Source: an uncultured Spirochaetales bacterium (GTDB lineage Bacteria > Myxococcota_A > UBA9160 > SMWR01). Taken from it: a stretch of 64,000 bases of DNA. The notes beneath the pieces are model-generated. The model was not told the DNA's origin. It made no database searches and saw nothing but the letters and a program-made list of their open reading frames with translations. Below, one piece after another: positions 663-64,000 of this stretch. The stretch is taken from assembly GCA_964494795.1 (NCBI GenBank), contig CAZBSV010000181.1:4591-68590 (forward strand), written 5' to 3'. A program made the position numbers and the translations under genes. Position 1 is the first letter of the stretch. Each line of letters begins with the position of its first letter.

Positions 663-1856
663 GTGGGCGTAGAGCTCAACGACATCCTGAAGATCGCCCT
701 CAAGGGTGGAGCCTCGGATATCCATCTCAAACCCGGCCTACCGCCGATGTTTCGGGTGGACGGCGCGTTGGTTCCGCTGAAAAACGGCGAGCGAATTCCC
801 CCCGACGAACTCCAGAAAATGGCGTTCTCGATCATGAACGAGAACCAGAAGACTCGTTTCAACGAGACCCGGGAAACCGACCTCGCGTACGGGATCGCCG
901 GCCTCGGCCGGTTTCGCGTCAACGTATTCCAACAGCGCGGAACGGTCGGAATCGTCTTCCGTGTGATTCCATTCGGCGTCAAGTCGGTCGAGAGCCTGCA
1001 CCTGCCCAAGATCATCGAGTCCATCGCGATGGAACAGCGGGGATTGGTCCTCGTGACGGGTACCACGGGCTCGGGAAAATCGACGACGCTGGCCGGAATG
1101 ATCGACTACATCAATTCGAATCGGACCTGCCACATCATGACGATCGAGGACCCGATCGAGTTCCTGATTCGCGATCGGCGCTCCATCGTCAATCAGCGCG
1201 AAATCGGAGTGGACACCCAGAGCTTCGCCAACGCGCTGCGGGCTGCCCTGCGTCAGGACCCAGACGTGATCCTCGTCGGAGAGATGCGCGACTTCGAAAC
1301 CATCGAGACGGCCCTCACGGCTGCCGAAACAGGCCATCTCGTGATGAGCACCCTGCACACCCTCGATGCGACGGAAACCATCAACCGCATCATCTCGGTG
1401 TTCCCTCCCTACCAGCAGAAGCAGGTGCGTCTGCAACTCGCCGCAATCCTCAAGGCGGTGATTTCCCAGCGCCTCGTACCGCGCGCCGACGGAAAAGGGC
1501 GGGTGCCCGCGCTGGAGGTGCTGATCAGCACGGCGCGAGTCCGCGAATGCATCGGCGACAAGGATCGAACCAAGGAACTCCACGACGCAATCGCGAAGGG
1601 CTTCACCACCTACGGGATGCAGACCTTCGACCAGTCCTTGATGCACCTGGTGAAACAGGGACTGGTCACCTACGAAGAAGCCCTCAACCACGTCTCCAAT
1701 CCGGACGACTTCGCGCTGCGCTTCCGCGGAATTGCCTCGACGTCGGACGGCACCTGGGACGACTTCGAAAGCGGCGAAAACAAACCCGACGAAAGCGCGC
1801 CCGCGAAAGACGCTTCGACGAACGAAGTCGACGACGAATTCATTCAGCGCTTCTAG
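663..1856 (+). CDS. pilT: type IV pilus retraction ATPase PilT/PilU family
   Basis: ORF 285..1856 has Walker A GTTGSGKSTT, then MTIEDPIEF, ALRQDPDVILVGEMRD and AETGHLVMSTLHT boxes. I moved the start to GTG 663 (VGVELNDILKIALKGGASDIHL), where PilT N-termini normally begin. The upstream 126 codons are Arg/Pro-rich noise. The gene has a roughly 50-aa acidic C-terminal tail. Confidence 0.9.
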   Translation: MGVELNDILKIALKGGASDIHLKPGLPPMFRVDGALVPLKNGERIPPDELQKMAFSIMNENQKTRFNETRETDLAYGIAGLGRFRVNVFQQRGTVGIVFRVIPFGVKSVESLHLPKIIESIAMEQRGLVLVTGTTGSGKSTTLAGMIDYINSNRTCHIMTIEDPIEFLIRDRRSIVNQREIGVDTQSFANALRAALRQDPDVILVGEMRDFETIETALTAAETGHLVMSTLHTLDATETINRIISVFPPYQQKQVRLQLAAILKAVISQRLVPRADGKGRVPALEVLISTARVRECIGDKDRTKELHDAIAKGFTTYGMQTFDQSLMHLVKQGLVTYEEALNHVSNPDDFALRFRGIASTSDGTWDDFESGENKPDESAPAKDASTNEVDDEFIQRF

Positions 1857-1882
1857 CCCGCGCAGATCCTTTATCTATTGAG

Positions 1883-2190
1883 TGAGTCCGCTGCTGGCGG
1901 GGGCCCAGTTGGCCGGGCTGGTTGTGCGGACGGGCTTCTGATTTGAACTCGGTTGCAGGTACACGACGCGTGAGTCCACTGCTGGCGGGGGCCCAGTTGG
2001 CCGGGCTGGTTGTGCGGACGGGCTTCTGATTTGAACTCGGTTGGCAGGTACACGACGCGTGCGTCCGCTGCTGGCGGGGGCCCAGTTGGCCGGGCTGGTT
2101 GTGCGGACGGGCTTCTGATTTGAACTCGCTTGGCAGGTACACGACGCGTGAGCCCGCGGCTGGCGGGGGCCAGAGTTGGCCGGGTCGCTC
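1883..2190. repeat. tandem array of an 88-89 bp unit, about 3.5 copies, intergenic between pilT and alaS
   Basis: Direct reading gives units at 1883-1970, 1971-2059 and 2060-2148, plus a degenerate partial copy to about 2190. Copies are nearly identical. The core is GCTGGCGGGGGCCCAGTTGGCCGGG. Confidence 0.9.
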
Positions 2191-2360
2191 CGCGTTGTAA
2201 CTGGAGGCTTTGCAGAGGCCTGCTCGGCCGGGCCGGCTTCCAGCGGCCTCGGCTGGTCATGCGTGATGCCCCCATCAATTGGCGGTCCTGATCCGCGTCA
2301 GCGGGCCTATCGGGGCTTGGGTATAGTCGGATTCATGCGCGATCTCGGTGGGTTGGAGAG

Positions 2361-8566: not shown

Positions 8567-9337
8567 CTAGTTGATCTTCGGACCCTCTGCGATCCGGTCC
8601 GCTGCTGCCTGGGCGTATTCGCTGTCTCGGTAGTTCTGGACGATCGACTGGAAGATCCGCTCGGCCTCTTCGTCGCGGCGCATCTCCCGATAACAGATCG
8701 CGAGATTGTAAAGCGCCTCGTCGTCCAAGCCGAGTCCTGGATATTCGTTCAATATCGACCGATAACGCTCTGCGGCGCTCTCGTACTCTTCCAGCTCCAT
8801 GTAGTACTCGGCGATCCGAGCGACGCTGTTCGCAAGCATGGTGCGCAGATCCCGCCAGAGAATCTCACCTTCACGCGCCTCGGGCGAATGCGGATATTTC
8901 GCGAGCAATCGGTCGAGGTGGAGCAGCGCATCGCGCGTAGCGGTCTGGTCGCGGTTGGCGGCGTGCATCTGTTGCTCGCGACAGTGTGCGGATTGCAGGA
9001 TCGTATACGGAACCTTCTCGTGTTGGGGGTGGAGGTCCGCGAAGTCCCGGTAGTACGACAGCGCCTCGTCGTAGCGGCCGTCATCGAAGTAGGCGTCGGC
9101 GATCTTGAGTTCCGCGAGGAGGGCAAATTCGCTGTAAGGATAATTGTCGATGATCGCCTGGAGCCTCTCGATCGCCCGGACGTAATCGGTCGTGCGGAAA
9201 ATCAGCCAGCTTCGCCCCTTGAGGATGTCGGTCGCCTCTGCGTACAATTCGTCGGCCGGCGCCACCGCCTCGAATGCGGGCGGCGGAGACGAGCAGGCCA
9301 CGGCGAGCGCCGCGAGGGCGATCGAGCGCTTGAACAT
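8567..9337 (-). CDS. bamD: outer membrane protein assembly factor BamD (YfiO-like lipoprotein)
   Basis: ORF 8567..9364. From ATG 9337 it reads MFKRSIALAALAVAC with lipobox LAVAC, followed by BamD-type TPR helices (ERLQAIIDNYPYSEFALLAELKIADAYF, LDRLLAKYPHSPEA, IAEYYMELEEYESAAERY). Confidence 0.85.
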   Translation of the reverse strand: MFKRSIALAALAVACSSPPPAFEAVAPADELYAEATDILKGRSWLIFRTTDYVRAIERLQAIIDNYPYSEFALLAELKIADAYFDDGRYDEALSYYRDFADLHPQHEKVPYTILQSAHCREQQMHAANRDQTATRDALLHLDRLLAKYPHSPEAREGEILWRDLRTMLANSVARIAEYYMELEEYESAAERYRSILNEYPGLGLDDEALYNLAICYREMRRDEEAERIFQSIVQNYRDSEYAQAAADRIAEGPKIN

Positions 9338-9433
9338 GGAAACCGCGGGTGCGTGGCAGCGCATCGGCTCATCTCGATTCGCGTGAATCTGCTAGCGTGT
9401 CGTACCCATTATACCGGCGTGAGGAATACATCG

Positions 9434-9649
9434 ATGGACAGGCGATCGCTCGAAAAACTGCGAACGGACCGGCGCCTCGCCGGGCGAAAGGGCTGGATGA
9501 AGGCGACAGAGCTCGATCGCGAGACCCAGAATCTGCCCGATGCCAGCGGAAAGATCGCCGCCGAGGAGAAAAAACCCGATTCGCGTGATGCGGGCGGGAG
9601 CTCGTCCCCGGTCGCACCCCGCACCCGCAGCGGGCTCGACGCCGCGTAA
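9434..9649 (+). CDS. small hypothetical protein (71 aa)
   Basis: This is the C-terminal part of track ORF 8528..9649. ATG 9434 is preceded by GAGGAA at a spacing of about 7 nt. Third-position GC is high. Product: MDRRSLEKLRTDRRLAGRKGWMKATELDRETQNLPDASGK.... It ends 18 nt before the next gene. Confidence 0.4.
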   Translation: MDRRSLEKLRTDRRLAGRKGWMKATELDRETQNLPDASGKIAAEEKKPDSRDAGGSSSPVAPRTRSGLDAA

Positions 9650-50502: not shown

Positions 50503-50681
50503 CGCCGTTTCTCCTCCACCTCCTCCAGGCAGCTGCGGAACATCGATTCGGCGGCGCAATACCAATGCAAAGCGCGTCCGCGCCAATGAATCCGACAACC
50601 CCCGCACGCTTCGATCCGAAATCAGCTGGCCGCAATCCTAACGCGCAACCGTTACTCTTTCACGACGATCTGGACGGAAAA

Positions 50682-52277
50682 ATGCAGCAACAAGAATCCG
50701 CACCGATAGCCTGCCGGGGAAACGCTTTGACCCAATGGATGCAACGGCTGCGCGCGAAAATTCCCGCGGCGCCGGCGTACTGGTTGACGCGCTTCGCGCT
50801 GCTGCGCGCGCTCGGCTTCGTCTACCTGATCGCATTTGCTTCACTCGCCGGCCAGTTGCTGCCGCTGATCGGTTCGCAGGGTCTGTTGCCCGCCGCAAAG
50901 CTGCTGGAACTCGGCCCCGAACACACGACCCGACTCGCGGCGTTTCTCGAGTATCCCACGCTGTTCTGGTTTGGCAGCTCGGACGCGTTTCTGGTCGCCA
51001 GCTGCTGGATCGGGATCGCGCTCTCGACGCTCGTGTTACTCGGCTACGCGAACGCGATCGCAATGGCCCTCTTGTGGTGGCTCTATCTCTCCTTCGTTCA
51101 GATCGGACAGACCTGGTACGCGTTTGGCTGGGAGATCCAACTGCTCGAAACGGGTTTCCTCGCGATCTTTCTCTGCCCGCTCGTGGATGGACGGCCCTTC
51201 CCGCGCCTGGCACCGCGGGCCGTCGTGATCTGGCTGTTTCGCTGGCTGCTCTTCCGCGTGATGCTCGGTGCGGGCCTGATCAAACTCCGCGGCGACCCCT
51301 GCTGGATCGAATTCAGCTGCCTCGATTTTCATTTCGAGACCCAGCCCATTCCGCATCCCGTCAGCTGGCTCTACCACAACCTGCCGACCTGGGTTCATCG
51401 CAGCGGTGTGGCGTTCAATCACCTGGTGGAAGTCATCGCGCCGTTCTTCGTGTTCGGCCCGCGGATCGCGCGCCACAGCGCGGGCGTTCTGATAGTCGCA
51501 TTCCAGCTCGTGTTGATCTCGAGCGGAAACCTCGCGTTTCTCAATTGGATCACGCTGGTCGCCGCGCTCGCGTGCTTCGACGACAGCATCTGGAGGCGAA
51601 TGCTGCCGGCGCGCCTGGTCGGCCTTGCCGAGCGCGCCGCGGGCTCGGCGCGCGGATCTCGAGCGGGATCGGTCGCGGTCGCCGCGCTGCTCGCGGGGGT
51701 CGTCGCGCTCAGCGCGAACCCGGTCGCAAATCTGCTCTCGGATCGCCAGATCATGAACACGTCGTTCGACCGCCTCCACCTCGTCAACACCTACGGTGCG
51801 TTCGGAAGCATCGGGCGACAGCGCGACGAGTTGATCTTCGAGGGGACCCTGGATTCGGCCATTAGCGAAGACACGCTCTGGCGCGAATACGACTGGAAGT
51901 GCAAGCCGGGAGATCCGCAGAGAAGGCCGTGCCTCGTAACCCCCTACCACTATCGACTCGACTGGCTGATCTGGTTCGCCGCGATGTCGAACTACGAGCG
52001 CCACCCCTGGCTGGTTCACCTGGTCTGGAAACTGCTCCACGGCGACCCGGGCGCGCTCAGTCTGCTGGCCGGCAATCCATTCCCGGAACATCCGCCGAAA
52101 TTCGTGCGCGTCGAACTCTACCGCTACGAGTTCACCGATTGGGGAGACGCAGGCGGGGCGTGGTGGAAGCGAAGAAGGCTGCGCGAATACCTCGCGCCGC
52201 TAGCGGTCGACAACGAACGCTTCCGCGCGTACCTCGAGGCCCACGGCTGGATCGAGCGAGCGGACGGCGCGCGCTGA
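50682..52277 (+). CDS. lipase maturation factor (LMF1/DUF1222) family polytopic membrane protein
   Basis: Read in the frame of track ORF 50565..52277, with ATG 50682 preferred. LLRALGFVYLIAFASL..QLLPLIGSQGLLP, WYAFGWEIQLLETGFLAIFLCP, WLLFRVMLGAGLIKLRGDPCW, FHFETQPIP, LVNTYGAFGSI, PYHYRLDWLIWFAAM, LYRYEF. Confidence 0.75.
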   Translation: MQQQESAPIACRGNALTQWMQRLRAKIPAAPAYWLTRFALLRALGFVYLIAFASLAGQLLPLIGSQGLLPAAKLLELGPEHTTRLAAFLEYPTLFWFGSSDAFLVASCWIGIALSTLVLLGYANAIAMALLWWLYLSFVQIGQTWYAFGWEIQLLETGFLAIFLCPLVDGRPFPRLAPRAVVIWLFRWLLFRVMLGAGLIKLRGDPCWIEFSCLDFHFETQPIPHPVSWLYHNLPTWVHRSGVAFNHLVEVIAPFFVFGPRIARHSAGVLIVAFQLVLISSGNLAFLNWITLVAALACFDDSIWRRMLPARLVGLAERAAGSARGSRAGSVAVAALLAGVVALSANPVANLLSDRQIMNTSFDRLHLVNTYGAFGSIGRQRDELIFEGTLDSAISEDTLWREYDWKCKPGDPQRRPCLVTPYHYRLDWLIWFAAMSNYERHPWLVHLVWKLLHGDPGALSLLAGNPFPEHPPKFVRVELYRYEFTDWGDAGGAWWKRRRLREYLAPLAVDNERFRAYLEAHGWIERADGAR

Positions 52278-53392: not shown

Positions 53393-53863
53393 CTAGTTGG
53401 CTTCGAGCGCGCCGCTCGCGAACTCGATCCGCGAGACGGTCCCTCCGAACGCCTCTCCCTTCACCTTCACATCCCAGTAGCGAATGGTGAACTTCGGAGA
53501 ATTGTTCTGGCCGATCTGCATGTTCATGCCCGGGAGCGCGCCGACCCCCATATTGGTCGACGCGGGCCCGCTGCTCGTATCCATCGAGTAGGTGGGAAGC
53601 CCCTGCGGGAACCACGACGCATCGCCCACCGTGGCCGGGGCGAAGGTCGGATCCGCATTCACCCGCAGCGCGTGCAGCGCAGCGGAAACTCCGGCTTCCG
53701 CGGCAAAGAACGCGGTCTTCTTGCGCTTCATGAAGCCTGCGACGCGCTGGTCCCGCGTGACGGCTTCGAGAGCCGCAAAGCCGATGATTCCCATCATCAC
53801 CATCACGAGCATCACGATCAGAAGCGCAGATCCCTGCTGGCGCTTGCGCGAATGCCTCATCAT
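53393..53863 (-). CDS. pilX: type IV pilus minor pilin, PilX-like
   Basis: 156 aa: MMRHSRKRQQGSALLIVMLVMVMMGIIGFAAL (PilX N-terminal pattern). 4-nt overlap with the upstream pilW-like gene. Confidence 0.65.
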   Translation of the reverse strand: MMRHSRKRQQGSALLIVMLVMVMMGIIGFAALEAVTRDQRVAGFMKRKKTAFFAAEAGVSAALHALRVNADPTFAPATVGDASWFPQGLPTYSMDTSSGPASTNMGVGALPGMNMQIGQNNSPKFTIRYWDVKVKGEAFGGTVSRIEFASGALEAN

Positions 53864-54834
53864 GTGCCCTCCACGCGATCGCCGACGTTTCTCATCCGAA
53901 CGACGGCGGTGTGGACCCGGCGCCGGAAACCATCTGCGACTGCGAGGCCCGCGTCCCGATTCTCCGTCGACTGGACGAAACCCTGGGTGAATCGCTCGTC
54001 TTCGGAGCGGGTGCGAACGACGACGTTGAAGCGGATCGCGCGCAGCTCGCTCGCGTTGCTCGCCGCGGCCGTGTAGTTCGTGCTAGCCCCGAAATCTTCG
54101 CCCGCTTCGAGATCGTTGTTGCCGTTCTCGTCGAGGAAGTACACCACCTGTAGATCCTCGACGCCGTCCGCCAAGCGCAGGTCGTTGCGGAAGAGCGTGC
54201 CGGAATCGATCCGGTATTCGATGGCTGGGATCGCGGTCAGCGCAGAGGCGCCGCCGAGAGCGCCGAGCCCGGCGGTCGCGGGCTGGACTTTGATCGAAGT
54301 CGCGCCCAGGTCGACCACCTCGACAACCCCGCAGACCGATCCGCGATCGAGATCCATCAGATCGACGATGATCACGCCGCCACCTACGCGGAAATCGCTG
54401 TCGTTGACTCCGTTGCCATCCGTGTCGTAGGAGGGATCCGGTGTACCCGGCTCCATCACGAGGGTGTCGAGCATCAGAGTCGGGTTGCCTGTTACGTCAG
54501 TCACGCCGCCCTGGATCCGGGCGCCATCGAAGACCCCGATCACGCCTGCGGGGTTCACCGCCGTGTGGTCGCTGACGTAGAGCAGATCGGGAGCATCGTC
54601 GTCGTCGACCCCGCAGGCTGCGGCGCCTTCCGGAATCATCATTCCCGCGTGCCTCAGGTCGCGCTCGAGCAGGCTCGCGATCGCGCGCGCGCTCTGCTGC
54701 GTGTCGACCACGGAGTCGATCTTGACGTAGGTCCGGTTGTTGACCGTGAAGATCTGCATCGTGAACATCATCACGATCGCGATGAGTGCACTCGCGACCA
54801 GCAACTCGATCAGTGTAAATCCCGAGTCGCGCAT
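53860..54834 (-). CDS. pilW: type IV pilus minor pilin, PilW-like
   Basis: 324 aa. Prepilin signal MRDSG/FTLIELLVASALIAIVM with Glu at +5. Size and operon position fit PilW. Confidence 0.7.
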   Translation of the reverse strand: MRDSGFTLIELLVASALIAIVMMFTMQIFTVNNRTYVKIDSVVDTQQSARAIASLLERDLRHAGMMIPEGAAACGVDDDDAPDLLYVSDHTAVNPAGVIGVFDGARIQGGVTDVTGNPTLMLDTLVMEPGTPDPSYDTDGNGVNDSDFRVGGGVIIVDLMDLDRGSVCGVVEVVDLGATSIKVQPATAGLGALGGASALTAIPAIEYRIDSGTLFRNDLRLADGVEDLQVVYFLDENGNNDLEAGEDFGASTNYTAAASNASELRAIRFNVVVRTRSEDERFTQGFVQSTENRDAGLAVADGFRRRVHTAVVRMRNVGDRVEGT

Positions 54835-54840
54835 CCTCGA

Positions 54841-55335
54841 CTATGCCCCTTCGCGGTTGTAGCGCACGCTCGAGAGCGTGATCGATCGGGTATCGCCGTT
54901 CTTTTCGGTCCACGTCACCGATACATCGATCGCGCGGGTAAAGCTCGGCTGCAGATCCGTGATCTGATGCGAGACATCGTAGGCTCGCTCGCCGAGCCCG
55001 GACCCACCGTACAACTGGACACCGTTCGCCACGGCGGTATCGGCGACGAATCCGCCCGTGTCCGGGATCGACGCCCAGGAGTTTTGCTGGAGCTGCTCCA
55101 TCGTGGTTTCGGCGATCGCGGCAGCGTTCGTCGCATGCCGACCGCGATCGCTTCCCTGCATGGCTTGGATCTGCATCGCCGACAGCGCCAAGAGCCCGAA
55201 GGCGAGAAGACTGACCACGATCATGACTTCGATCAGCGTGAACCCGCGCGCATCCCGACGCAGCCGCGCAGCCAGCCCGCCCATCGATCCGCCTGACTGA
55301 TCCATCATTGCGTCCAAATCCATCATTGCGTCCAA
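54841..55335 (-). CDS. pilV: type IV pilus minor pilin, PilV-like
   Basis: Prepilin motif ...RRDARG/FTLIEVMIVVSLLAFGLLAL. The start is ambiguous (TTG 55335; ATGs at 55326, 55323, 55308, 55305) because an 18-bp duplication covers the start region. Confidence 0.7.
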   Translation of the reverse strand: MDAMMDLDAMMDQSGGSMGGLAARLRRDARGFTLIEVMIVVSLLAFGLLALSAMQIQAMQGSDRGRHATNAAAIAETTMEQLQQNSWASIPDTGGFVADTAVANGVQLYGGSGLGERAYDVSHQITDLQPSFTRAIDVSVTWTEKNGDTRSITLSSVRYNREGA

Positions 55336-56021
55336 CCCGCTCCATTCCAGGCGTGCACGCGCACGCTGCCGAGAGGTGCGAGCGTCACCGCGTAGTCGCG
55401 GCCGCCGCTCGTGATGTAGAGGCCTGCACCACCGGTTCCGGTGTCGCCGATCGTGCCACAGGTCGTCGCGGTCGGTTCGAAGCCCACCGGAATACCATCG
55501 GGCCGGAACAGCACCCAGTTCGTCGCATTGTTGCTCGGATCCGCAGCGGTGGTTCCACCGGCCTGGGGCGGGCTGAAGGCCCCGGCGCCCGTGTCCGTCG
55601 GCACCTTGACGCTCGCTTGCGAAACCCCGAATTCGATCCGATTCGGCAGAGCGATCGTCTCTTGCGCCTCACCTGCATCGATGTGGCAGTTTGCGGTGGC
55701 GGGTGCGCCGTCGTCGAGGATCAGCATCGGCACCGTGGCTGCGTTCGAGTTGACGAGCACGCTGCCAGCTGGATCCGCGGTACCCAGCGGACCGAAGAAG
55801 GCGATCTGATGGTTGCCGGTTCGAATCGCCTGGCCGCGCGCAATCTGGAGCGTGTTGGCGAGGTCGCGCGCAAAGCCCTGGAGACGCCGGCGTTCGAGCA
55901 TCTGCTGAATCGAGGGGATCGCGAGAGCCGCGAGCACCCCAATGATGCCCAGCACGACGACCACCTCGATCAGGCCCACGCCGGCTCGACGCTGGATCCG
56001 CGTCCGCTGCGAAACCGACAT
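55323..56021 (-). CDS. fimT: type IV pilus minor pilin, FimT/FimU (GspH-like)
   Basis: 232 aa: MSVSQRTRIQRRAGVGLIEVVVVLGIIGVLAALAIPS, then the GspH-like region RRLQGFARDLANTLQIARGQAIRTG. Its stop overlaps the pilV start codons. Confidence 0.65.
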   Translation of the reverse strand: MSVSQRTRIQRRAGVGLIEVVVVLGIIGVLAALAIPSIQQMLERRRLQGFARDLANTLQIARGQAIRTGNHQIAFFGPLGTADPAGSVLVNSNAATVPMLILDDGAPATANCHIDAGEAQETIALPNRIEFGVSQASVKVPTDTGAGAFSPPQAGGTTAADPSNNATNWVLFRPDGIPVGFEPTATTCGTIGDTGTGGAGLYITSGGRDYAVTLAPLGSVRVHAWNGAGWTQ

Positions 56022-56023
56022 CG

Positions 56024-59000
56024 TCAGTCGTTCTCCCGCCAGTAGAGGGTGGCGCCATTGAGATCGATGTCTTCGGCTTCGAGCACCTCGATATCCGCAC
56101 CGCTCTTCTCGATGATGACCTTGTTGTCCTTGCCGCCCACACCGATCGAGACCTTCGGATCGGTCGGCAGGCCGGGCCCGAGCATCATCCAGCGCATCGC
56201 GCCGCCGCTGCCGTCGTCGAAATGGCCCTTTCCGGTCTGCAGATCGAAGACGTAGAGATTGCCTTGGCCTCGGGTCACGCAGGGGTCGATGTTCTCGGTG
56301 GGATAGAAGCTCGCTGCGATCACGTCTCCGTTGAAGATCTCGATATTGGTGACGAACTTCTCGCCATCGACGAGGCTGAAGAAGAAACCCTTGTCGCTGA
56401 ACGACTGCGCGGCTTGGCTCGCGCTGAAATCCGTCAGATCAGATTCTGTAATCGTCACCAACGCCGGCGAAGCGATCTCGTATGGATCCGAATCGATCAT
56501 CACGTAGAACCGATTGTTCTCCGTCGTATCCCCCGCGTCACCGCCAAAGGTGAGATTGCGGCGCTCACCGCTTCCGAACGCGACGTACAGCGTGCCGTTC
56601 CTGTAGGCGGCCGCGGCTGGGAACATGAAGTTCTTGTAGTAGGTGACCGCCCCGATCGTCGCGGGAGCCGCCGCGAAGAATTTCTTGAACGGCCAGTTCG
56701 GCTGGGTGCGAAGCCCGCTGCCGTCGTGGATCCGATCCTCGCCAGCGTCGTGGATCGACCATTTCCAGACATTTCCGCCCATGTCGCCCACGTAGATCAC
56801 GTCTGCGGCGCCGTCGTAATTGAGATCGAGCACGCTCGTTGTGCCCACCACGGAGTGGAGCATGTCTGCCTGGGGATCGGGAGCCAGCGCTGCGTCGAAT
56901 CGCTTCTGCGCGAGCACGCCACCGGTCTTCAGATCGATGACGTAGATCCCGCGCCCCTTGGTGGAGGCAGCGTCATAGATATTGGTGGAGCCCGTAACCT
57001 CCTCGGGGTTCGGGTCACTCGTCCGGTCGTAGCCGCCGGTCACGATTGCCACCCAGCGGTCGACCGTCGCGCCCGCGGCTCCGCCGTACCAATTCAGCCG
57101 GACCTTCGTGATGATCGGCTTCGACCAGGTTTCGCCCATGAAGGCCTGATCGGTGACGTTCGCCTCGGAGGGGAACTCCCAGACGTAGCGCGGAAACATC
57201 GGATCCGGCGGCGAGCCCGGCCAACCGCCGATCGGAGCGATCCCATTCGGGTTGGTGATGTCCAGCGCGAAGTAGTGATGCCCGCCTTCGCGCAGACCCG
57301 CGGCCAGATAGGTGTACCACTCGACGCCGACGGCCTGGTTGAAACCCACCTCCCCAGCAACCTGGGCGTCGATCCAGACATCCGCCGAGTTCAGGTCGCC
57401 GTCGACGTAATTGCTGCGATCGGTCGGACTGTCGACGACGAGGTTCTTGATCTTGTTCCTCGCCTCCCAGGGCATGTAGCCGAAGAGTTCCGTCCCAGTG
57501 CCCCGGTCGTAATAGGGAGGGGCGGGGTCGCCGACCGGCAGGTTCGGAACGATCCACGAACCGGTGTCGACTGCCTCGAGAAATCCGCCGTTCGTTCCCG
57601 CATACAGCACCCGATCGCGCCCCGCGTAATGGGTCTTGAAATCGGAGTAGCCGGGATCGCTGATCCGCAGGCCCGGTTGGCGCACCGAGACGGGATTCGA
57701 GTGAAAGATGTCGCCGAGTCGAGCGGGCCGCTCCTCACAGGCCACTGGGACCGCCACGTTGGCCATCACGCCCGTGCCGAAGAAGCAGCCTCTTGCGAAT
57801 TCGACGATCTCGTCCGCGAGGCCTTCTTCGGTCGTCGCGGTGCTCCCGTTGACGACGTAGTTCGGATCGTTGGGTGCTTGCGCGGGCGGCGCCGCGAAGG
57901 GGTCGACGAGCAACTCGGCGGCGCTGAGGCTCTGGTCGAAGCGCGGAAGATAGGCGCTCGACACTCCCGAGTTCGAGACGTAGAGGTTGCGCGACGCCGG
58001 CAGCGGAACTTCGTCGGCCGCGTCCCAGAAGTATGCAGCTCCCGGTTTGAACGGCCCGCTGTTGCACTCGGCGGGATTTGGATCCACGAGCGCGCAGACG
58101 CCGTTCCTGTCCTCGATGTTGCCGGCTGCGTCGAGCGTCCAGGCGCGGATGTGGCCCTCCCAGAACGCGCTCTTGCCGCGCGGGAAGAAGTAGCTCTGGT
58201 AGAAGTCGGCGCCGTCCGCGGTCCGCGCGGAGGGAACGGTGGCGGCGGTGAACGATGCGGCCTTCTCGATGATGTTGTTCAGCGACTCGACCAGCGCATA
58301 AAGCAACTGATCGCCGTCTTGCGCGGCGTAGAAGTTGCCGTTTCCGAGATCTGCGACCCGCTCGAGAAACACATTGGTCGCATTGGTCGGCCCACCCGTC
58401 CCGAAGCCAACCACGTAGGTGTCGATGGTCTGGTCGCCCTCGAGGTCCGGCCGGAAGTCCTTGTCGTACATGTATTTGGAGATGTCGTCGAGGTAGTAGG
58501 TGGCCTCGTCGGCGCTGCCGGGCTCCTCGGCTTCGGCATCGGCGTGATAGTTTCCAATCAATCCCGGCGCGCCGCCGGTTCCAAAGTCGGTAAATCCGAG
58601 AGCCGTATCCGTCGGATCGGCGTCGAAGTTGTCTCGAGTGGGCAGACCATCGGTCACGAGAATCACGAAGGCCTTTTCGCAGTCGTAGAGCATCGTATCT
58701 TCGAACCACTGAGCCGAAGCGACGGGGTTTCCGAACTTGTTGTACTCGTAGATCGGAAACGGGTTGCCGTTTTCGCCGAGCGGCATGTCCGCGGCGACGC
58801 GCGGCATCCAGTAGGTGTAGATCTGGAACAGCGTTTCGGCGAGCGGCGTGCCGTCGGTAGATCGAACGTTCTCGAGCTTGAGCGACGCTTCGAGCTGCGC
58901 GGCGTGGTTCGGGTTGGACCGACCGAGATCTTCCGAGATGAATCCGCCATTGGGGTCGACGTTTCCCACGTCCGCTTGCTCGCGGAACGCCGCCGATGCG

Positions 59001-59776
59001 AACCGCACGTTCTTCGGCTCCGCGAGGCAGAGCAGGTCGAGCAGGACCTGCTTGGTCGCCTCGAAGCGGGTGCGCCGATACATCTCCGCGAAGGCTCCAG
59101 ACCCGCCGGCCTGGGTACAGCCTTCGACGTCCGCGTCCTTGGTGGCGATTTCGTCGAGAATCGCCGCATCGGTCGCGTCGGTCTGGTCCAGCCCGAGGTA
59201 CCACATCAGGTAGCGGCCCGACCAGTAGGTCGGATTTTCCGGGCCGTAGACGGTTCGGTTGCCGCGCGCAGGGGTGTTGCAGTTGCTGTTGTTCAGATTT
59301 CCACTGACAGTGTTGACCGCGTCGGGGTCGAGCACACCGCCGGGATTCGTCGCATCGTCGAAATCCGCGGAGATCGTGCAGTAGCTGCCGTCCGGAACCT
59401 GGTCGGGATCGAAGGCGGGATGCCACTCGATCTGGTTCATCGACTGCGAGTTGTCCAGGAACAACACCACGTTCGGCGAGACCGCGGCCTGGAGCAGGAA
59501 GAGGTCGTCACCGCCGCTGTCGTCTTCCGGAGCCGGCGTCGGGGGCGGGGGAGTGGCAGTCGGCGTCGCGGTCGGGGTCGGCTTGGTGGTCGGAGTCGGC
59601 TTGGTGGTCGGAGTCGGCTTCGCGGTCGGCGTGGACGTAGCGGTCGGAGTCGGTCCTACGGGCATCGCATGGACGTTCGCCGGGAAAATGAGCAACAGCG
59701 CTGCGAGCGCCAGCAGCTTTGCCGTCGAACGCGCGAGCGCGTTAGTCGCCGAACTCGAACGGAGGGGTGCAGTCAT
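56024..59776 (-). CDS. pilY1: PilY1-like type IV pilus tip protein with N-terminal vWA domain
   Basis: ATG 59776 follows GAGGTG. Signal peptide AKLLALAALLLIFPANVHA, a Thr/Pro/Lys linker, a vWA MIDAS-like motif VVLFLDNSQSM and later ILVTDGLPT, and a C-terminal PilY1 propeller (VIYVGDMGGNVWKW, GNLYVFDLQTG). About 1250 aa. Confidence 0.8.
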   Translation of the reverse strand: MTAPLRSSSATNALARSTAKLLALAALLLIFPANVHAMPVGPTPTATSTPTAKPTPTTKPTPTTKPTPTATPTATPPPPTPAPEDDSGGDDLFLLQAAVSPNVVLFLDNSQSMNQIEWHPAFDPDQVPDGSYCTISADFDDATNPGGVLDPDAVNTVSGNLNNSNCNTPARGNRTVYGPENPTYWSGRYLMWYLGLDQTDATDAAILDEIATKDADVEGCTQAGGSGAFAEMYRRTRFEATKQVLLDLLCLAEPKNVRFASAAFREQADVGNVDPNGGFISEDLGRSNPNHAAQLEASLKLENVRSTDGTPLAETLFQIYTYWMPRVAADMPLGENGNPFPIYEYNKFGNPVASAQWFEDTMLYDCEKAFVILVTDGLPTRDNFDADPTDTALGFTDFGTGGAPGLIGNYHADAEAEEPGSADEATYYLDDISKYMYDKDFRPDLEGDQTIDTYVVGFGTGGPTNATNVFLERVADLGNGNFYAAQDGDQLLYALVESLNNIIEKAASFTAATVPSARTADGADFYQSYFFPRGKSAFWEGHIRAWTLDAAGNIEDRNGVCALVDPNPAECNSGPFKPGAAYFWDAADEVPLPASRNLYVSNSGVSSAYLPRFDQSLSAAELLVDPFAAPPAQAPNDPNYVVNGSTATTEEGLADEIVEFARGCFFGTGVMANVAVPVACEERPARLGDIFHSNPVSVRQPGLRISDPGYSDFKTHYAGRDRVLYAGTNGGFLEAVDTGSWIVPNLPVGDPAPPYYDRGTGTELFGYMPWEARNKIKNLVVDSPTDRSNYVDGDLNSADVWIDAQVAGEVGFNQAVGVEWYTYLAAGLREGGHHYFALDITNPNGIAPIGGWPGSPPDPMFPRYVWEFPSEANVTDQAFMGETWSKPIITKVRLNWYGGAAGATVDRWVAIVTGGYDRTSDPNPEEVTGSTNIYDAASTKGRGIYVIDLKTGGVLAQKRFDAALAPDPQADMLHSVVGTTSVLDLNYDGAADVIYVGDMGGNVWKWSIHDAGEDRIHDGSGLRTQPNWPFKKFFAAAPATIGAVTYYKNFMFPAAAAYRNGTLYVAFGSGERRNLTFGGDAGDTTENNRFYVMIDSDPYEIASPALVTITESDLTDFSASQAAQSFSDKGFFFSLVDGEKFVTNIEIFNGDVIAASFYPTENIDPCVTRGQGNLYVFDLQTGKGHFDDGSGGAMRWMMLGPGLPTDPKVSIGVGGKDNKVIIEKSGADIEVLEAEDIDLNGATLYWREND

Positions 59777-60120
59777 TCGGTCACCTCGGGCACCTTCCGG
59801 TCCTGTCAACGGCCGGTTCGTCGCCTATCAACGACCGGTTCGTCGCACGAGACGCAGCTGAGCGCGACGAAGTCGGTCGCTCGATCCAGCGGCATCTCGA
59901 AGACGCTGTGGTGCAATTCCCTCATCGGATTTCTCGGCCAGCCACTTGAGTGAAAAACGGGCGAAGTTGATCGTGCGTAAGCGAGTCGCGCTTGAGTTGC
60001 GCGTTGCCGGTTCGGCTTCGCCGTTGCCGGTTCGGGTTCGCGATCGGGCCGCTGCGCGCGATGCTTCGCGCGGCCTGCCGCCCGCGCGCGCAAGCGTCAA
60101 CTTGCGGGTCCCGCGGGCCG

Positions 60121-62100
60121 ATGACGGAAGTGCCCGAGGAGACTCTCGATCTTCCCTCTGCGGGCGGTGGAGCGATGGAGCGAAGAGAAGGCCGGCGAAT
60201 CAAGCGCAGGCTCACCTGCGAATTCTTCCACGGGGCGAGCGTCCACCGCGGAATCATCCTCGATCTCTCTGCCGCGGGAATCTTCATCCGGACCAACGCG
60301 GTGCTTGCACCCGGAACGGAGATCGACATCTACCTGGCCGTCTCGGTGGCGGCGCCAGCCATGACACTGCGGGGAAGCGTGGTGCGCCGCCGTTCGGTTC
60401 CGGCCACGCTCACCACGTTGATCCAGCCCGGGATCGGGGTGAAGATCACCGAAGCGCCGCGCGAATACGGTCTGCTCACGCAAGACTGCGAACTCGATGA
60501 CGCAATCCAGATCGATTACGACGCTACGGCGCAGGATGCCGACCAACACGCGAAACAGAATCCGCCAGCGACCGCCGCGAATGCGAGCACTGGCAAGAGC
60601 GAACGGCCCTCTCAGCCGCCAGCAAGCGCGAAGGCTGCGGAGAAGTCGGATGTTCTCGAAAAGTCGGATGCTTCAGCAGACACGAGAAAGGGACACTCCG
60701 AATCGACCCGCGCGCCGCTGAAGCGCAAGCCGAAGCAAGAAGCCGCTCGGAGCACGCACAGCGAGAAACCCAAGGCGCCGCGCGAGTTCATCGCTGTGCT
60801 CGTCGGGGGTTCTGCGCTCGACGAGATCGCCGAGGTCTTGACAGGGATGGGAGTCAAGGTCGTTCGCTGCGGCCCCTACGACCCCCAGCTCGCCGCGCTC
60901 GACGACGCCCAACTCCTCGTGGTCAGCGCGGAGATCGCGATGTCGGACCCGCTCCCCGTCGATACCGACATGCTCGTCGGAATCGCGGTGTGTGGAGAGA
61001 TCTCGGAAACCATGCGCTCGCAGATCCGCCAGCAGGGTTTTCGCTACCTGCTGCGCCCGCACCTGCACCCCGAAGCGCTGCGACTCCTGCTGCGCTACGC
61101 GGTCTACGCGGAGCGCGACCGGCGTGGACGGGTGCGCCACCCGGTGGGATGCGAGGTGAGCTGGCGCGTCGGCTGGAAGCGAAGTCGCGGTCGTCTGCTC
61201 GATATCTCCCGGGGCGGCTGCTGCCTGCTGGTGGAGAACAGCCCGGACGTCGACGCGCGCATTTCGATCAAGATCCCGCCTGAAACCGTTGGCGGCCCTG
61301 CGCTCAAGCTTCGCGGCAGAGTGCTTCGCCGCACCGCCAACGCGGCGCACAGCGGCAGGCAGCGGACTGCGCTCGGGATCGTCCTCGACGACCTGACGGC
61401 CCCGGCCCGCAAGCTTCTGGCCGAGCTCTGCGAGAGATGGAGCGAGAGTCCGCCCATGCTGCCGCGCGACGACTGGGCGGAAGTTCGCGATTCCTACACC
61501 GAGCCTTCCGACTCACACATCGATGATCGGAACGCTGCGGCTCCCAGATCAGAAGGGAAACCGGAAGCCGCTGCAGAAGCGAAACCGGAAGCCGCCGCAA
61601 GCCAACCGGAAACCCCCGCAAGCCGACCGGAAGCCGCCGCAAGCCGCCGACCGGAGACTTCGACCGAAGACCGCGTCGATGCGCGCATCGACGGTCCTTC
61701 AGCGCGATCCACTTCACGCGAAGCCGGGCGAGCGGCGCGCCGCGCCGTGTTCGAGAGAGAAGTCGTCGAAGTCGACGAGCAGGCGCGCGTCGTCCAGGCG
61801 TTGCTGGGTCGCGATCTTTCGGTCGAGGGGATCCGCGTGGTGCGCCAGCTCGGACTCAATCCCGGCAACAAACTCCGACTCGCGCTGTTCGACACCTCGC
61901 AGCGAGAACCGCTGATGCTGAACGCGGAGGTCTCCAGAGACGACGGCGGCAGCGGACTCTTCCTGCGCTTCGTCGATCTGTCCGCGGGAGCGATCGCGCG
62001 CATCGAAGCGATCGTCGCACTGCTGCCTGCGGTCGAGTCAATCGATCCACACGGCGATGCGGGAGTGATACCGGCGGGCGTCGTCTCCAACCACGCCTGA
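60121..62100 (+). CDS. multi-PilZ-domain protein (three PilZ-like modules)
   Basis: Read in the frame of track ORF 59992..62100, with ATG 60121 preferred. Module 1 is RRIKRR...GIILDLSAAGIFIRT. Module 2 is RGRVRHPV...GRLLDISRGGCCLLV. Module 3 is degenerate: RRAVFERE...GRDLSVEGIRVV. The linkers are low-complexity Ala/Pro/Glu/Lys repeats. Confidence 0.7.
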   Translation: MTEVPEETLDLPSAGGGAMERREGRRIKRRLTCEFFHGASVHRGIILDLSAAGIFIRTNAVLAPGTEIDIYLAVSVAAPAMTLRGSVVRRRSVPATLTTLIQPGIGVKITEAPREYGLLTQDCELDDAIQIDYDATAQDADQHAKQNPPATAANASTGKSERPSQPPASAKAAEKSDVLEKSDASADTRKGHSESTRAPLKRKPKQEAARSTHSEKPKAPREFIAVLVGGSALDEIAEVLTGMGVKVVRCGPYDPQLAALDDAQLLVVSAEIAMSDPLPVDTDMLVGIAVCGEISETMRSQIRQQGFRYLLRPHLHPEALRLLLRYAVYAERDRRGRVRHPVGCEVSWRVGWKRSRGRLLDISRGGCCLLVENSPDVDARISIKIPPETVGGPALKLRGRVLRRTANAAHSGRQRTALGIVLDDLTAPARKLLAELCERWSESPPMLPRDDWAEVRDSYTEPSDSHIDDRNAAAPRSEGKPEAAAEAKPEAAASQPETPASRPEAAASRRPETSTEDRVDARIDGPSARSTSREAGRAARRAVFEREVVEVDEQARVVQALLGRDLSVEGIRVVRQLGLNPGNKLRLALFDTSQREPLMLNAEVSRDDGGSGLFLRFVDLSAGAIARIEAIVALLPAVESIDPHGDAGVIPAGVVSNHA

Positions 62101-62173
62101 ACGTGCCCGGCCTGCGCGCCTGAACGTGCCCGGCCTGCACGCCTGAGCGTGCCCGGCCTGCACGCTTGAGCGG
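62095..62173. repeat. 23-bp tandem repeat, about 3.4 copies, starting at the last codon and stop of the PilZ gene
   Basis: GCCTGAACGTGCCCGGCCTGCGC (62095-62117, containing the TGA stop at 62098-62100), then copies at 62118-62140 and 62141-62163, and a partial copy to 62173. Confidence 0.9.
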
Positions 62174-62386
62174 ACCCGCCGCGCCCCACATGCGGCTGAG
62201 CGACTGCCCCCAAGTGTCGCACGGGATCGCGATTCGCTGCGAGATTCGCGATCGCATCGCGGCACATACCTTGCATCGCGTTGGGCAGACCCACAGGGTC
62301 GGAAACGGCACCCCGCTCGGCGCATCGATCGAGCTCCGGGAAGTCTGGTTTCGACACCGACTCTTGTTCAGGGATCCGAGCAGTCG

Positions 62387-62824
62387 ATGGAAACGCACGA
62401 GGCCATACTTCGCGACCGATTGAGGCGCGCCGCCGACCAAATCCAGGCGCAGCACAGGCGACTCGAACCTCTCGTCGACGATCTGAGCCGAGCGCTTGCA
62501 AACCAGGCCTGCCGCGAAGCGCAGACCGCGGCGTTCCGATTCGAGGGTGCACTCAAAGCCCATTTTCTACTCGAGGAAGAAATCGTGTTTCCCGCGATCC
62601 GCGGATTCTGTCCGCAATCGACTGCAGAACTCGAAACCTTCACCGGCGATCACCGGCGCATCGGCGCCGGCATCCAGGCAGTGATCGGTTGGATTCTGGA
62701 ATCGCGGCTCGAACACGCCGCCAAATCACTCGAGTCGTGCTGGCACGTCATTCAGGACCACGAAACCCGCGAGGAGACTTTTCTAAACGCCCTTGACTCG
62801 GCGGCACGTGACCGCACCCTCTGA
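62387..62824 (+). CDS. hemerythrin-like (HHE cation-binding) domain protein
   Basis: 145 aa with spaced His/Glu ligand candidates: QAQHRRLEPL, LKAHFLLEEEIVFPAI, TGDHRRIG, CWHVIQDHETREE. Confidence 0.7.
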   Translation: METHEAILRDRLRRAADQIQAQHRRLEPLVDDLSRALANQACREAQTAAFRFEGALKAHFLLEEEIVFPAIRGFCPQSTAELETFTGDHRRIGAGIQAVIGWILESRLEHAAKSLESCWHVIQDHETREETFLNALDSAARDRTL

Positions 62825-62827
62825 CGC

Positions 62828-64000
62828 ATGCCTCGCTCCGGCGATCTCGAGCAACGCCTCAGCTACCTGGATCTGCGCACTCCCGACCTGGAGCGCCTCG
62901 CTGCACTGCGGCCGGTGCTCGAAAAGAACGCGGCAGGGCTGGTCGATTCCTTCTACCACCAGCTGCTCGCCTTTCCCACGACCCGCCAGCTCCTCGGGGA
63001 CCCAGCCGTCCGGCAGCGACTCGTGGCCGCCCAACGCGACTACCTGCTCAGCCTCGCGGGACCGACGATCGACGACGCCTACCTCGAGCGGCGCCGACTG
63101 ATCGGCGAGGTCCATGAGCGAATCGGACTCGAACCGCGCTGGTATCTCGGAGCGTTTGCACTCTACCTCTCACTGCTGATTCCACTCGTACACGAAACCC
63201 ATCCGCACGATCCCGTCGAGGCGAGTCGAACGATCGTCTCGCTTCAGAAACTGATCTTTCTCGACGCGCAGATTGCGATGGAAGCCTACATCGACCACCA
63301 ACAGCGACAGCTCCAATATTTCACCGGCGAAATCGCAAAGGAAGGCCGACGGCTCGCGCGAGATTTCGAAGATCAGAAGATCGAGCTTCAGCTCACCGAA
63401 AATCGCGCGCGAGCCGCGGAAGAGCTCGCGTCGGTGGCCACGCTGGTTGCGGGCCTCGCGCATGAAATTGGTACGCCGATGGGCGTGATCCAGGGCCATG
63501 CCAATCAACTCGAATCCGCAGTCACCGACGAAGACGCAAAGTGGCGATTGCGGACGATCCAGGAGCAGGTGGGCCGGATCTCGAAGATCATCCAGACGCT
63601 TCTCAACATGGCTCGACCCGGAAAGACACAGCACGTGCTGGTCTCGCTCGAATCGGTGATCGAGACGACCCTTGCCTTCTTGACGGAAAAGTTTTCGCGA
63701 CGCGGTATCGAGGTTCGAACCGAGCTTGCTTCCGCACCGAGTGTGCGCGGAGACCCCGAGCGCCTGCAACAGTTGCTCTTGAATTTGTTCATCAACGCCG
63801 TGGACGCGATGCCGGGCGGCGGAGAATTGCGGGTCGCTTTGGCGGTCGCGGCCAACGGCGAGATCGAGATTGCGGTTGCGGACAACGGCCAGGGCATTCC
63901 TGAGCGGGATCTTCCGCGAATCTTCGAGCCGTTCTTTACCTCGAAAGAAGCCGGCACCGGAAACGGCCTCGGCCTGATGGTCGCCAAGGGAATCATCACC
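62828..64000 (+). CDS. globin-coupled sensor histidine kinase (protoglobin domain + HisKA + HATPase_c); 3' end outside the window
   Basis: Absent from the ORF track because there is no stop in the window. My translation from ATG 62828 (4 nt after the hemerythrin stop) reads [56 protein letters not shown]...[26 protein letters not shown] (globin-coupled-sensor signature with proximal His). It continues with H-box [15 protein letters not shown]-box [14 protein letters not shown] and G-boxes DNGQGIP...[10 protein letters not shown], and stays open to base 64000. Confidence 0.85.

Follow-up and report, generated by a model that had tools for sequence, protein, structure and literature searches.

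A hemerythrin-like gene closely linked to a globin-coupled histidine kinase in a lineage of uncultured Myxococcota

Near the end of the 64,000-nt stretch of metagenomic DNA analysed here (the window), two genes lie in tandem on the plus strand: hr (62387–62824), encoding a 145-aa single-domain hemerythrin-like (HHE) protein, Hr, and the 5' part of a gene for a globin-coupled histidine kinase (GcHK; 62828–64000, 391 of 424 codons), which runs off the window end. An earlier note on this DNA had described a hemerythrin-domain ORF carrying His/Glu metal ligands, followed by a Protoglobin-HisKA-HATPase kinase, and both proteins matched the expected Pfam models. Hr matched PF01814 (Hemerythrin/HHE) with an E of 3.7e-13 and 50.5 bits (cut-off 25.3), and its AF2 model is a four-helix bundle with a pLDDT of 92. 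The ligand codons are those of H23 (62453-55), H59 (62561-63), E63 (62573-75), H89 (62651-53), H125 (62759-61) and E129 (62771-73). All six residues were invariant on alignment of 17 homologues (43–69% identity), and the motif H...HxxxE...H...HxxxE on a four-helix bundle places Hr among the HHE-domain (PF01814) proteins.

The set of four His and two Glu residues is RIC/FBXL5-like and is not the canonical five-His set of O2 carriers. Helix 3 holds a single His (H89), helix 4 holds HxxxE, and the HxxxH and HxxxxD motifs were absent from Hr in the ligand alignment of 17 homologues. The full ligand set of YtfE/RIC is H84/H129/H160/H204/E133/E208, and the H/HxxxE/H/HxxxE spacing of Hr resembles that of the FBXL5 Hr domain. 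Two closer assignments were considered and rejected: a canonical O2-carrying (bacterio)hemerythrin (TIGR02481, 21.6 bits vs a cut-off of 51.75; NF033749, 16.5 vs 84), and a member of RIC/YtfE/ScdA (TIGR03652, 16.9 bits vs a cut-off of 204.7), Hr being a single-domain protein of 145 aa without ScdA_N. With this ligand set and scores below the NCBIfam cut-offs, the earlier description of the pair as two O2/NO-binding modules was, for Hr, an assumption. A Foldseek search of the PDB with the Hr fold returned generic four-helix bundles, all at E > 0.03, among which DcrH-Hr ranked third (TM 0.62), a match that fits the Hr fold and is not discriminating; the Hr family profile gave only marginal matches to PDB sequences (YtfE, E 0.24). 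We infer that Hr is a di-iron four-helix-bundle protein, including its metal content and ligand chemistry, and it could hold metals other than iron, or no metal at all.

The full kinase (424 aa) was read from an identical public contig (L001), so that the contig extension suggested earlier supplied both the 3' end of the gene and the gene downstream. Its globin domain (about 62843–63304) matched Protoglobin PF11563 at 2.2e-37 (aa 6–159, model positions 4–157 of 158), followed by HisKA (63440–63619; 8.6e-12, aa 205–264), with the phospho-acceptor His212 at 63461-63, and by HATPase_c (3.9e-20, aa 308–389), which starts at 63749 and is cut by the window end. The kinase strings quoted in the earlier note, including HEIGTP, were all present. 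An N-terminal sensor globin with heme-pocket His and Tyr, together with HisKA and a HATPase_c bearing N and G boxes, identifies the protein as a GcHK. PDB sequence matches of the globin comprised HemAT, GsGCS and the globin of AfGcHK (Anaeromyxobacter sp. Fw109-5); it is a distant relative of AfGcHK (E 4.7e-10), being closer to HemAT (9e-17). His96 (F8; 63113-15) aligned with H99 of AfGcHK and the proximal His of HemAT, and corresponds to H96 of NmpU (PMC11841059), while Tyr43 (B10; 62954-56) aligned with Y45 of AfGcHK (PMC8697598) and the HemAT Tyr. Both residues were invariant in 14 orthologues. By analogy, the kinase is predicted to bind heme and to autophosphorylate in an O2-dependent manner, as a heme-based O2 sensor.

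The two genes are separated by a very short and strictly conserved junction. The hr stop codon TGA (62822–62824) is followed by a 3-nt spacer, 'cgc' (62825–62827), and the kinase ATG (62828); with an offset of 441 nt, both ORFs share one reading frame. The earlier claim that hr ends 4 nt before the kinase ATG stands as regards close linkage; the gap itself is 3 nt, the A of the ATG being the fourth base after the stop. A stop-NNN-ATG junction was present in 17 of 17 metagenome loci and in six others, that is, in all of the about 23 related loci found (all metagenomic); the stop codon (TGA, TAA or TAG) and the spacer bases vary among them while the spacing is constant. Because the same junction recurs in about 23 independent loci, the pairing of hr and the kinase is not due to chance. 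The 30 nt that precede the kinase ATG contain no SD-like (ribosome-binding) purine run. This strict junction without a purine run, together with a single conserved sigma-54 promoter before hr, supports the proposed operon; the spacer is a candidate termination-reinitiation site, and kinase translation is probably coupled to termination on hr. Stop-codon readthrough, or a fusion gene that had been split, was rejected as the main reading since a stop is present in all loci, and no fused Hr-globin-kinase protein was found among the 120 best kinase homologues (356–458 aa).

A sigma-54 (-24/-12) promoter-like element, cGGCACatacCTTGCA, lies on the plus strand at 62260–62275, 112–127 nt upstream of the Hr ATG, and has one mismatch to TGGCAC-N5-TTGCW. 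All related loci for which upstream sequence was available have the pattern GGCAC-N5-[CT]TGC, in the same orientation and 53–238 nt ahead of Hr, against a background rate of 0.019 per 350 nt. As had been predicted, a response regulator (RR) is encoded downstream: on L001, a gene for an NtrC-type sigma-54 activator with Sigma54_activat and HTH_8 domains begins 186 nt after the kinase, and of 25 loci that extend beyond the kinase, about 22 have an RR orthologue after it. The locus combines a conserved -24/-12 element with a gene for a putatively cognate enhancer-binding protein (EBP), and use of the promoter is predicted. Two conserved TGCCCC-type boxes (62181–62222, plus strand), of which the second is CTGCCCCcaagTGtCGCAC (62204–62222), lie 40–80 nt upstream of the -24 element and are candidate enhancer (EBP) sites; these blocks were kept across 19–24 otherwise diverged intergenic regions and have no obvious dyad symmetry. 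In relatives, the octamer ATGGGGCA/TGCCCCAT was also found upstream of the sigma-54-like elements that precede the RR gene and a second Hr paralog, with ATGGGGCA upstream of all three promoter classes (hr-kinase, RR and second Hr paralog). Immediately upstream of the promoter, a dyad read from the sequence, GATCGCGA-N12(13)-TCGCGATC (62225–62253, plus strand), was kept in one sub-clade only (window, L002, L007, L088-091, L097, L099-100, L103-104 and L107). A scan of L001 from 1100 to 3500 gave neither terminators nor sigma-70 promoters, and Rfam gave nothing at E ≤ 1 in the window (59000–64000) or at E ≤ 0.1 in L001, L008 and L112.

The genes upstream of hr are connected with type IV pili (T4P). 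The immediate neighbour on the plus strand encodes a protein with three PilZ domains (60175–62100; PF07238, 6.6e-30, in three stretches), its start taken from alignment as the conserved ATG at 60175. Divergent from it, on the minus strand, is a T4P tip/minor-pilin cluster (53396–59776) that by Pfam comprises a PilY1-like gene (56024–59776) and genes for an N-methyl pilin (54844–55326), PilW (53863–54834) and PilX (53396–53863). A PilZ orthologue precedes Hr in 11 related loci and is missing from Hr-less sister loci, and a PilY1 orthologue was syntenic in nine related loci (annotated PF05567 in L004). The T4P and PilZ genes reported beside the pair are therefore real by Pfam and conserved together with hr-kinase. 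A search for GG-N10-GC sites with up to two mismatches to TGGCAC-N5-TTGC gave no match in the divergent regions between PilY1 and PilZ, in the window or in five relatives, and a whole-window search for a link to the pilus genes found the candidate enhancer 18-mer in a single copy, at 62204.

In an NJ tree, the Hr-linked kinases formed one monophyletic clade, and loss of Hr was observed in none of the 14 or more clade members sampled. Most orthologous kinases have no adjacent Hr, and sister lineages keep the kinase and regulator. Other genes occupied the slot before the kinase in some of these: the order in L111 was Hr, a perfect TGGCAC-N5-TTGC, Usp and kinase, and in L010 a sigma-54 promoter-like site, CBS and kinase. 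Given Usp or CBS in the sister slot and the many orthologous kinases without an adjacent Hr, Hr is not an obligatory sensor subunit of the kinase family. Four loci (L008, L093, L096 and L112) carry a second Hr-like paralog, convergent after the RR gene and with a near-consensus sigma-54 promoter, and overall at least four different arrangements place an Hr-like gene near the kinase-RR module. A 145-aa gene overlapping the kinase start in L022 was considered as a hidden Hr and proved to be Gluconate_2-dh3-like. The nearest non-linked relatives of Hr are stand-alone HHE proteins (31–46% identity, same ligands) that adjoin Usp, CBS or cation-efflux genes and in some cases share the Hr signature R-x-AQTAAF; unlike Hr, they have no globin kinase beside them and no conserved C-terminal LDS...RTL tail. 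From this distribution, Hr looks like a co-regulated stress effector at least as much as a second input.

The closest characterized precedent is in Myxococcus xanthus, in which the GcHK NmpU acts via the NtrC-like NmpR on sigma-54 promoters to control pilR/T4P motility and a hemN-hemerythrin operon (PMC11841059). Like AfGcHK and NmpU, the present kinase is soluble and of Myxococcota origin, with an N-terminal sensor globin followed by HisKA and HATPase_c, and as in NmpRSTU an NtrC-like sigma-54 activator stands at the end of the pathway, which has a link to type IV pili; the T4P/PilZ neighbourhood fits this precedent, by analogy. There are also differences. Here the kinase directly precedes the NtrC-type RR, and neither NmpT (the two-receiver protein) nor an NmpS relay was adjacent in relatives with 4–6 kb of downstream sequence, though a relay may be encoded elsewhere. 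The kinase operon begins with the hemerythrin-like gene as its first cistron, and this gene is not part of a distant hemN operon; the NmpR site GCGCA-N5-TGCGC was not found before hr (62100–62390), where only 2-mismatch matches occurred, none of them conserved. A sigma-54 gas-response precedent also exists for an HHE protein with a four-helix bundle and a His/Glu di-iron set, since the sigma-54 activator NorR induces norA, the gene for the di-iron protein NorA/RIC, and senses the gas that NorA binds (PMC9268430). In contrast to RIC/YtfE/NorA (about 220 aa), Hr is tied to a histidine kinase and not to NO reductase genes. Hemerythrin-type bundles are also found in signalling proteins such as DcrH and Bhr-DGC, but there, as in FBXL5, the domain is fused to the output, whereas Hr is a separate polypeptide with a stop codon in all loci; moreover, bacterial hemerythrin sensors use the canonical 5-His site, which Hr lacks. 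The literature on hemerythrin with globin-coupled, protoglobin or NtrC proteins yielded no published description of a hemerythrin and globin-coupled kinase pair. The parts are known, and their pairing, in one uncultured Myxococcota lineage, is previously undescribed.

Our leading reading, which we hold tentatively, is that the sigma-54 promoter, hr, the GcHK 3 nt beyond it and the NtrC-type sigma-54 activator that follows form a three-gene O2/redox module, probably autoregulated, in which Hr is a co-expressed di-iron stress or gas-handling effector with possible feedback on the sensor. The kinase would bind heme via His96, with Tyr43 distal, autophosphorylate in the six-coordinate heme state (O2-bound or ferric), by analogy with AfGcHK, and phosphorylate the adjacent regulator, its putative phosphotransfer partner. 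The regulator would then activate the -24/-12 promoter of hr-kinase, in response either to O2 or to hypoxia, and in relatives may also act on the sigma-54-like element before its own gene and on the promoter of the second Hr-like gene. As translation of the kinase is proposed to require that ribosomes terminate at the end of hr, the two proteins would be produced at a constant ratio. Most likely, Hr serves as a gas- or oxidant-handling effector of the regulon, comparable to the NmpR-controlled hemerythrin of M. xanthus and to Usp or CBS in the sister-lineage slot, and by binding or consuming O2, NO or peroxide it may alter the signal read by the heme. A dedicated partner protein would also be in keeping with the strict 3-nt coupling of hr and with its place before the sensor instead of in a target operon of its own.

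Such a partnership is possible, if doubtful, in the form of a composite sensor with two inputs, in which Hr would bind the GcHK and gate its autophosphorylation according to the di-iron state (O2, NO, Fe or redox), heme and di-iron site together setting the output. The stop-NNN-ATG junction is invariant, without an SD-like run, even where Hr identity falls to 53%, which implies the fixed-ratio co-synthesis typical of interacting proteins, and this is in keeping with the retention of Hr throughout the sampled clade and with hemerythrin domains serving as established O2, redox or iron sensor modules in fusions with MCP or DGC outputs (PMC9388753). Conservation of the C-terminal tail of Hr, LDSxxxxRTL, a stretch of predicted disorder, is confined to the kinase-linked clade, although it could instead reflect a nucleotide constraint for reinitiation. 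Against two inputs, orthologous kinases at 45–73% identity do without an adjacent Hr or have Usp or CBS in its place, Hr evolves much faster than the kinase (53–69% vs 77–82% identity), fusions are absent among the best kinase homologues, and the fifth His of reversible O2 carriers is missing. The stronger proposal, that Hr is an obligate stoichiometric partner in a composite sensor made tunable by sigma-54 autoregulation (heme for O2; di-iron for NO, peroxide or iron) that drives O2-dependent T4P behaviour via PilZ/PilY1, is unlikely. We consider it improbable that Hr is instead a RIC-like or redox partner that maintains the kinase, donating or repairing iron, or re-reducing or scavenging oxidants, so that ferric heme returns to the ferrous sensing state. 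The ligand set of Hr is the same as that of YtfE/RIC, for which H84, E133 and H204 are described (PMC9268430), with weak sequence matches to YtfE and the RIC model, and the full activity of Fe(III) AfGcHK means that redox state matters for sensing (PMC8697598); but Hr lacks the N-terminal ScdA_N and scores far below the RIC cut-off, the oxy complex of AfGcHK is unusually stable without helpers (PMC8697598), and most orthologous kinases have no such partner. Simple hitch-hiking, in which a stand-alone stress Hr-like gene entered between promoter and kinase in a single ancestor and has been inherited since with no functional link, would suit a single acquisition in one clade (NJ tree) and the related Hr proteins in unrelated stress loci, but is very improbable, as junction and ligands are kept in every descendant while nearby non-coding sequence and Hr itself have strongly diverged, and the number of Hr arrangements near kinase-RR is well above the expectation, estimated and not computed, for a family of few copies per genome.

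GcHKs have been studied as self-contained O2 sensors, and a lineage in which hr and kinase are locked together in all sampled members offers a natural test of whether heme sensors use accessory metalloproteins, be it for ligand discrimination, buffering or heme redox maintenance. The sigma-54 promoter, candidate enhancer boxes and NtrC-type regulator make up a compact circuit that can be reconstituted. If Hr were an obligate partner, no earlier two-component kinase would have been shown to rely on a separate non-heme iron protein to discriminate between signals; if Hr is only a co-regulated effector, the finding would be a modest addition to the known theme of hypoxia/stress regulons (Hr, Usp and CBS). 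The PilY1/PilZ synteny extends the O2-to-pilus link of M. xanthus NmpRSTU to uncultured Myxococcota.

The hemerythrin-like gene hr and the globin-coupled histidine kinase gene (gcHK) form a conserved sigma-54-type operon, followed by an NtrC-type response regulator (RR) gene, beside type IV pilus (T4P)/PilZ genes in one Myxococcota clade. The hr ORF (window 62387-62824, + strand; 145 aa, PF01814) ends in TGA at 62822-62824 and is followed, after the 3-nt spacer cgc, by the kinase ATG at 62828 (+), which opens an ORF that continues to the window end. The earlier note had read this pair from the sequence, and Pfam bore it out, with Protoglobin (2.2e-37), HisKA (8.6e-12) and HATPase_c (3.9e-20) in the second ORF and all of the quoted strings located in the kinase; the close linkage stood, and only the 4-nt spacing required correction, to 3 nt. 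Extension of the contig, as had been proposed, was provided by a 3.9-kb public contig (L001), which matches window 62300-64000 at 100% identity, encodes the same Hr protein without a difference and completes the kinase at 424 aa. The two ORFs share a reading frame, 441 nt apart. In the window and all related loci, one stop and one sense codon separate hr from the kinase, always in frame; such a layout would fit an origin in a fused protein, or readthrough that now and then yields one, and no fused homologues were seen among the kinase homologues and related loci examined.

The kinase globin domain was nearest to HemAT (9e-17), GsGCS (8e-15) and the globin of AfGcHK (4.7e-10), the last only distantly related. 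Tyr43 and His96 aligned with the distal Tyr and proximal His of all three (Y45 and H99 in AfGcHK; PMC8697598) and were invariant in orthologues. AfGcHK is active when its heme is six-coordinate, as Fe(III), Fe(II)-O2 or Fe(II)-CO, and inactive as five-coordinate Fe(II) (PMC8697598). A response regulator gene does lie downstream, as predicted: 186 nt past the kinase, L001 carries a gene opening with a receiver domain and the start of a sigma-54 interaction domain, and the relatives' gene at this position is a full NtrC-type activator (Response_reg, Sigma54_activat, HTH_8), kept in about 22 of the 25 loci with downstream sequence. Conserved elements of the kinase-RR gap, just beyond the window, were located at L001 3336-3353 and ~75 nt upstream; they comprise TTGGTACGACTCGTGCTT (3336-3353), which has the exact sigma-54 spacing GG-N10-GC, a ATGGGGCA-N4-TGCTACA block and a TGGGTC-N8-GACCCA dyad. 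TTGGTACGACTCGTGCTT ends ~14 nt ahead of the RR start codon and would leave almost no leader.

The gene pair, whose conservation had been flagged for checking, recurs across genomes, with the kinase ATG exactly 3 nt past the Hr stop in the Hr-homologue contexts examined, two MAGs labelled Deltaproteobacteria or Myxococcota (L008, L009) and 17 metagenome loci. Stop codons (TGA/TAA/TAG) and spacer bases differ among these loci, no SD-like (ribosome-binding) purine run precedes the kinase ATG, and identity to the window's proteins is 77–82% for the kinase and 53–69% for Hr. Hr-linked kinases were monophyletic in a neighbour-joining tree, and Hr relatives with no kinase downstream were limited to outliers of 43–46% identity adjoining cation-efflux, Usp and CBS genes. 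The invariant junction, together with a clade-specific C-terminal tail on Hr, would suit Hr as a dedicated partner of the kinase in a two-input sensor, a possibility that we take seriously but consider less likely than not. A role for Hr in heme maintenance appears improbable, and mere hitch-hiking of hr beside the kinase more improbable still.

Orthologous kinases with 45–73% identity (loci L010-L036, L111 and L112) lack a 3-nt-coupled Hr and mostly keep the RR, which argues that kinase-RR is an old module and the coupled Hr a later addition. The closest sister lineages have other small stress-type genes ahead of the kinase, placed downstream of a sigma-54 promoter-like site; the order is Hr, TGGCACatgggTTGC, Usp, kinase in L111, and the promoter-like cGGCACcagagTTGC, a 4xCBS protein and the kinase in L010. 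L112 has no upstream Hr and carries a convergent Hr-like gene directly past the RR; this paralog, with Cys in place of the fourth-helix His, also occurs in L008, L093 and L096, and PF01814 genes lie within 6 kb in L018, L027 and L033. These varied placements indicate that Hr-like genes are recurrently associated with the kinase-RR module in several arrangements. Directly upstream of the module in L112 (1-3824) are NirD/L-like, Rrf2-family, SCO1/SenC and two-domain Cu-oxidase (possibly NirK-like) genes, a context that may point to a connection with nitrogen-oxide metabolism in this sister lineage. In L019 (4851-5660), a ferritin-like di-iron oxygenase-type protein (Ald_deCOase/MiaE_2/Phenol_Hydrox matches), from a different di-iron four-helix-bundle family, is encoded directly upstream of the orthologous kinase, in a position similar to that of Hr.

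Hr matched PF01814, the hemerythrin HHE cation-binding domain, at E 3.7e-13 (50.5 bits; cut-off 25.3). Its homologues form a small, sharply bounded family, nearly all of 145 aa, with 24 clusters in a single-sequence search and ~59 at ≥46% identity in a profile search, below which the score falls from 170 to 93 bits. Loss of the metal ligands on alignment, named in the earlier note as evidence against the pair, was not seen: H23, H59, E63, H89, H125 and E129 (H...HxxxE...H...HxxxE; four His, two Glu) are invariant among homologues. Hr lacks two elements of the canonical O2-carrying hemerythrins, HxxxH and HxxxxD, and it also fell far under the cut-offs of the NCBIfam hemerythrin domain, bacteriohemerythrin, RIC and PA2171 models. 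An AlphaFold2 model from the family alignment was a confident four-helix bundle (pLDDT 92), for which Foldseek against the PDB returned generic four-helix bundles; the top matches included DcrH-Hr. Hr is thus an HHE superfamily member with a RIC/FBXL5-type ligand set; since it falls in no curated functional family, O2 or NO binding stays putative.

A sigma-54 promoter-like site, cGGCACatacCTTGCA (window 62260-62275), differs from TGGCAC-N5-TTGCW by one mismatch. Every related locus that includes upstream sequence has GGCAC-N5-[CT]TGC in the same orientation, 53–238 nt ahead of its Hr start codon, on a background of 0.019 per 350 nt in unrelated loci; the intergenic sequence around it is only ~46% identical. 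Two conserved TGCCCC-type boxes (window 62181-62222) lie 40–80 nt upstream of the -24 element. All three promoter classes share the octamer ATGGGGCA/TGCCCCAT in their upstream regions, and it may serve the adjacent activator as an enhancer half-site; the NmpR site known from M. xanthus (PMC11841059) is not present. The Hr-like paralog is preceded, at 190–263 nt, by a near-consensus sigma-54 promoter, TGGCA(C/T)G(C/T)GT(C/T)TTGCT, and a long conserved leader (L008 ~9218-9470, minus strand; also L093, L096 and L112). This leader includes a GGGGCGTGG...CCCACGCCCC stem, had no Rfam match and may be a structured 5' UTR.

Upstream of hr lie a gene for a three-PilZ-domain protein (conserved ATG at 60175) and a divergent cluster encoding PilY1-like and PilX/PilW/N-methyl pilin proteins. 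All Hr-linked loci that extend far enough upstream have syntenic PilZ and PilY1 orthologues, which are missing from sister loci L010-L012, L111 and L112; no promoter motif tying these pilus and PilZ genes to the hr-kinase module was found. A 23-nt unit, CACGCCTGAACGTGCCCGGCCTG, spans the PilZ-gene stop codon in 3.4 tandem copies (window 62092-62169; 92% match) and is absent from relatives' homologous intergenic regions. Within the PilY1/PilZ divergent intergenic region (window 59777-60174), non-coding blocks at ~59900-60010, TGTGGTGCAAT..CATCGGATT and CTTGAG.GAAAA...GTCGCGCTTGAGTTGC, are very strongly conserved, above flanking sequence. A minus-strand small ORF overlaps them; the window conserves neither the ATG that opens this ORF in five aligned relatives nor a second in-frame ATG, and neither ORF nor blocks matched Pfam or Rfam. 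The blocks may act as a regulatory region, or encode an RNA, for the pilus/PilZ genes. A bacterial lipase maturation factor homologue (LMF1 plus LMF1_C, E 1e-60; window 50565-52274) adjoins the minor-pilin genes.

Of the characterised systems, NmpRSTU of M. xanthus is the closest. Its globin-coupled kinase, NmpU (heme His96), stands at the top of a relay that leads to the NtrC-like NmpR. NmpR works at sigma-54 promoters; it modulates T4P motility and pilR, and it switches on an O2-utilisation regulon, one part of which is a hemN-hemerythrin operon (PMC11841059, PMC12753109). The hr-gcHK locus resembles the regulatory logic of NmpRSTU; however, its kinase adjoins the NtrC-type RR with no relay seen, and its hemerythrin-like gene is the first, predicted translationally coupled, cistron of the sensor operon. 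That an HHE di-iron protein can belong to a sigma-54 gas-response circuit has a precedent in NorA/RIC, which the sigma-54 activator NorR induces (PMC9268430). No account of a hemerythrin-GcHK gene pair turned up in literature searches. As to the role of Hr, our leading, still tentative, reading is that the small proteins are regulon outputs, because the position ahead of the kinase varies in content (Hr, Usp or CBS), another Hr is sigma-54-driven and M. xanthus offers a precedent. This clade would then have placed its output within the sensor's own operon, where Hr would provide feedback if the operon is autoregulated.
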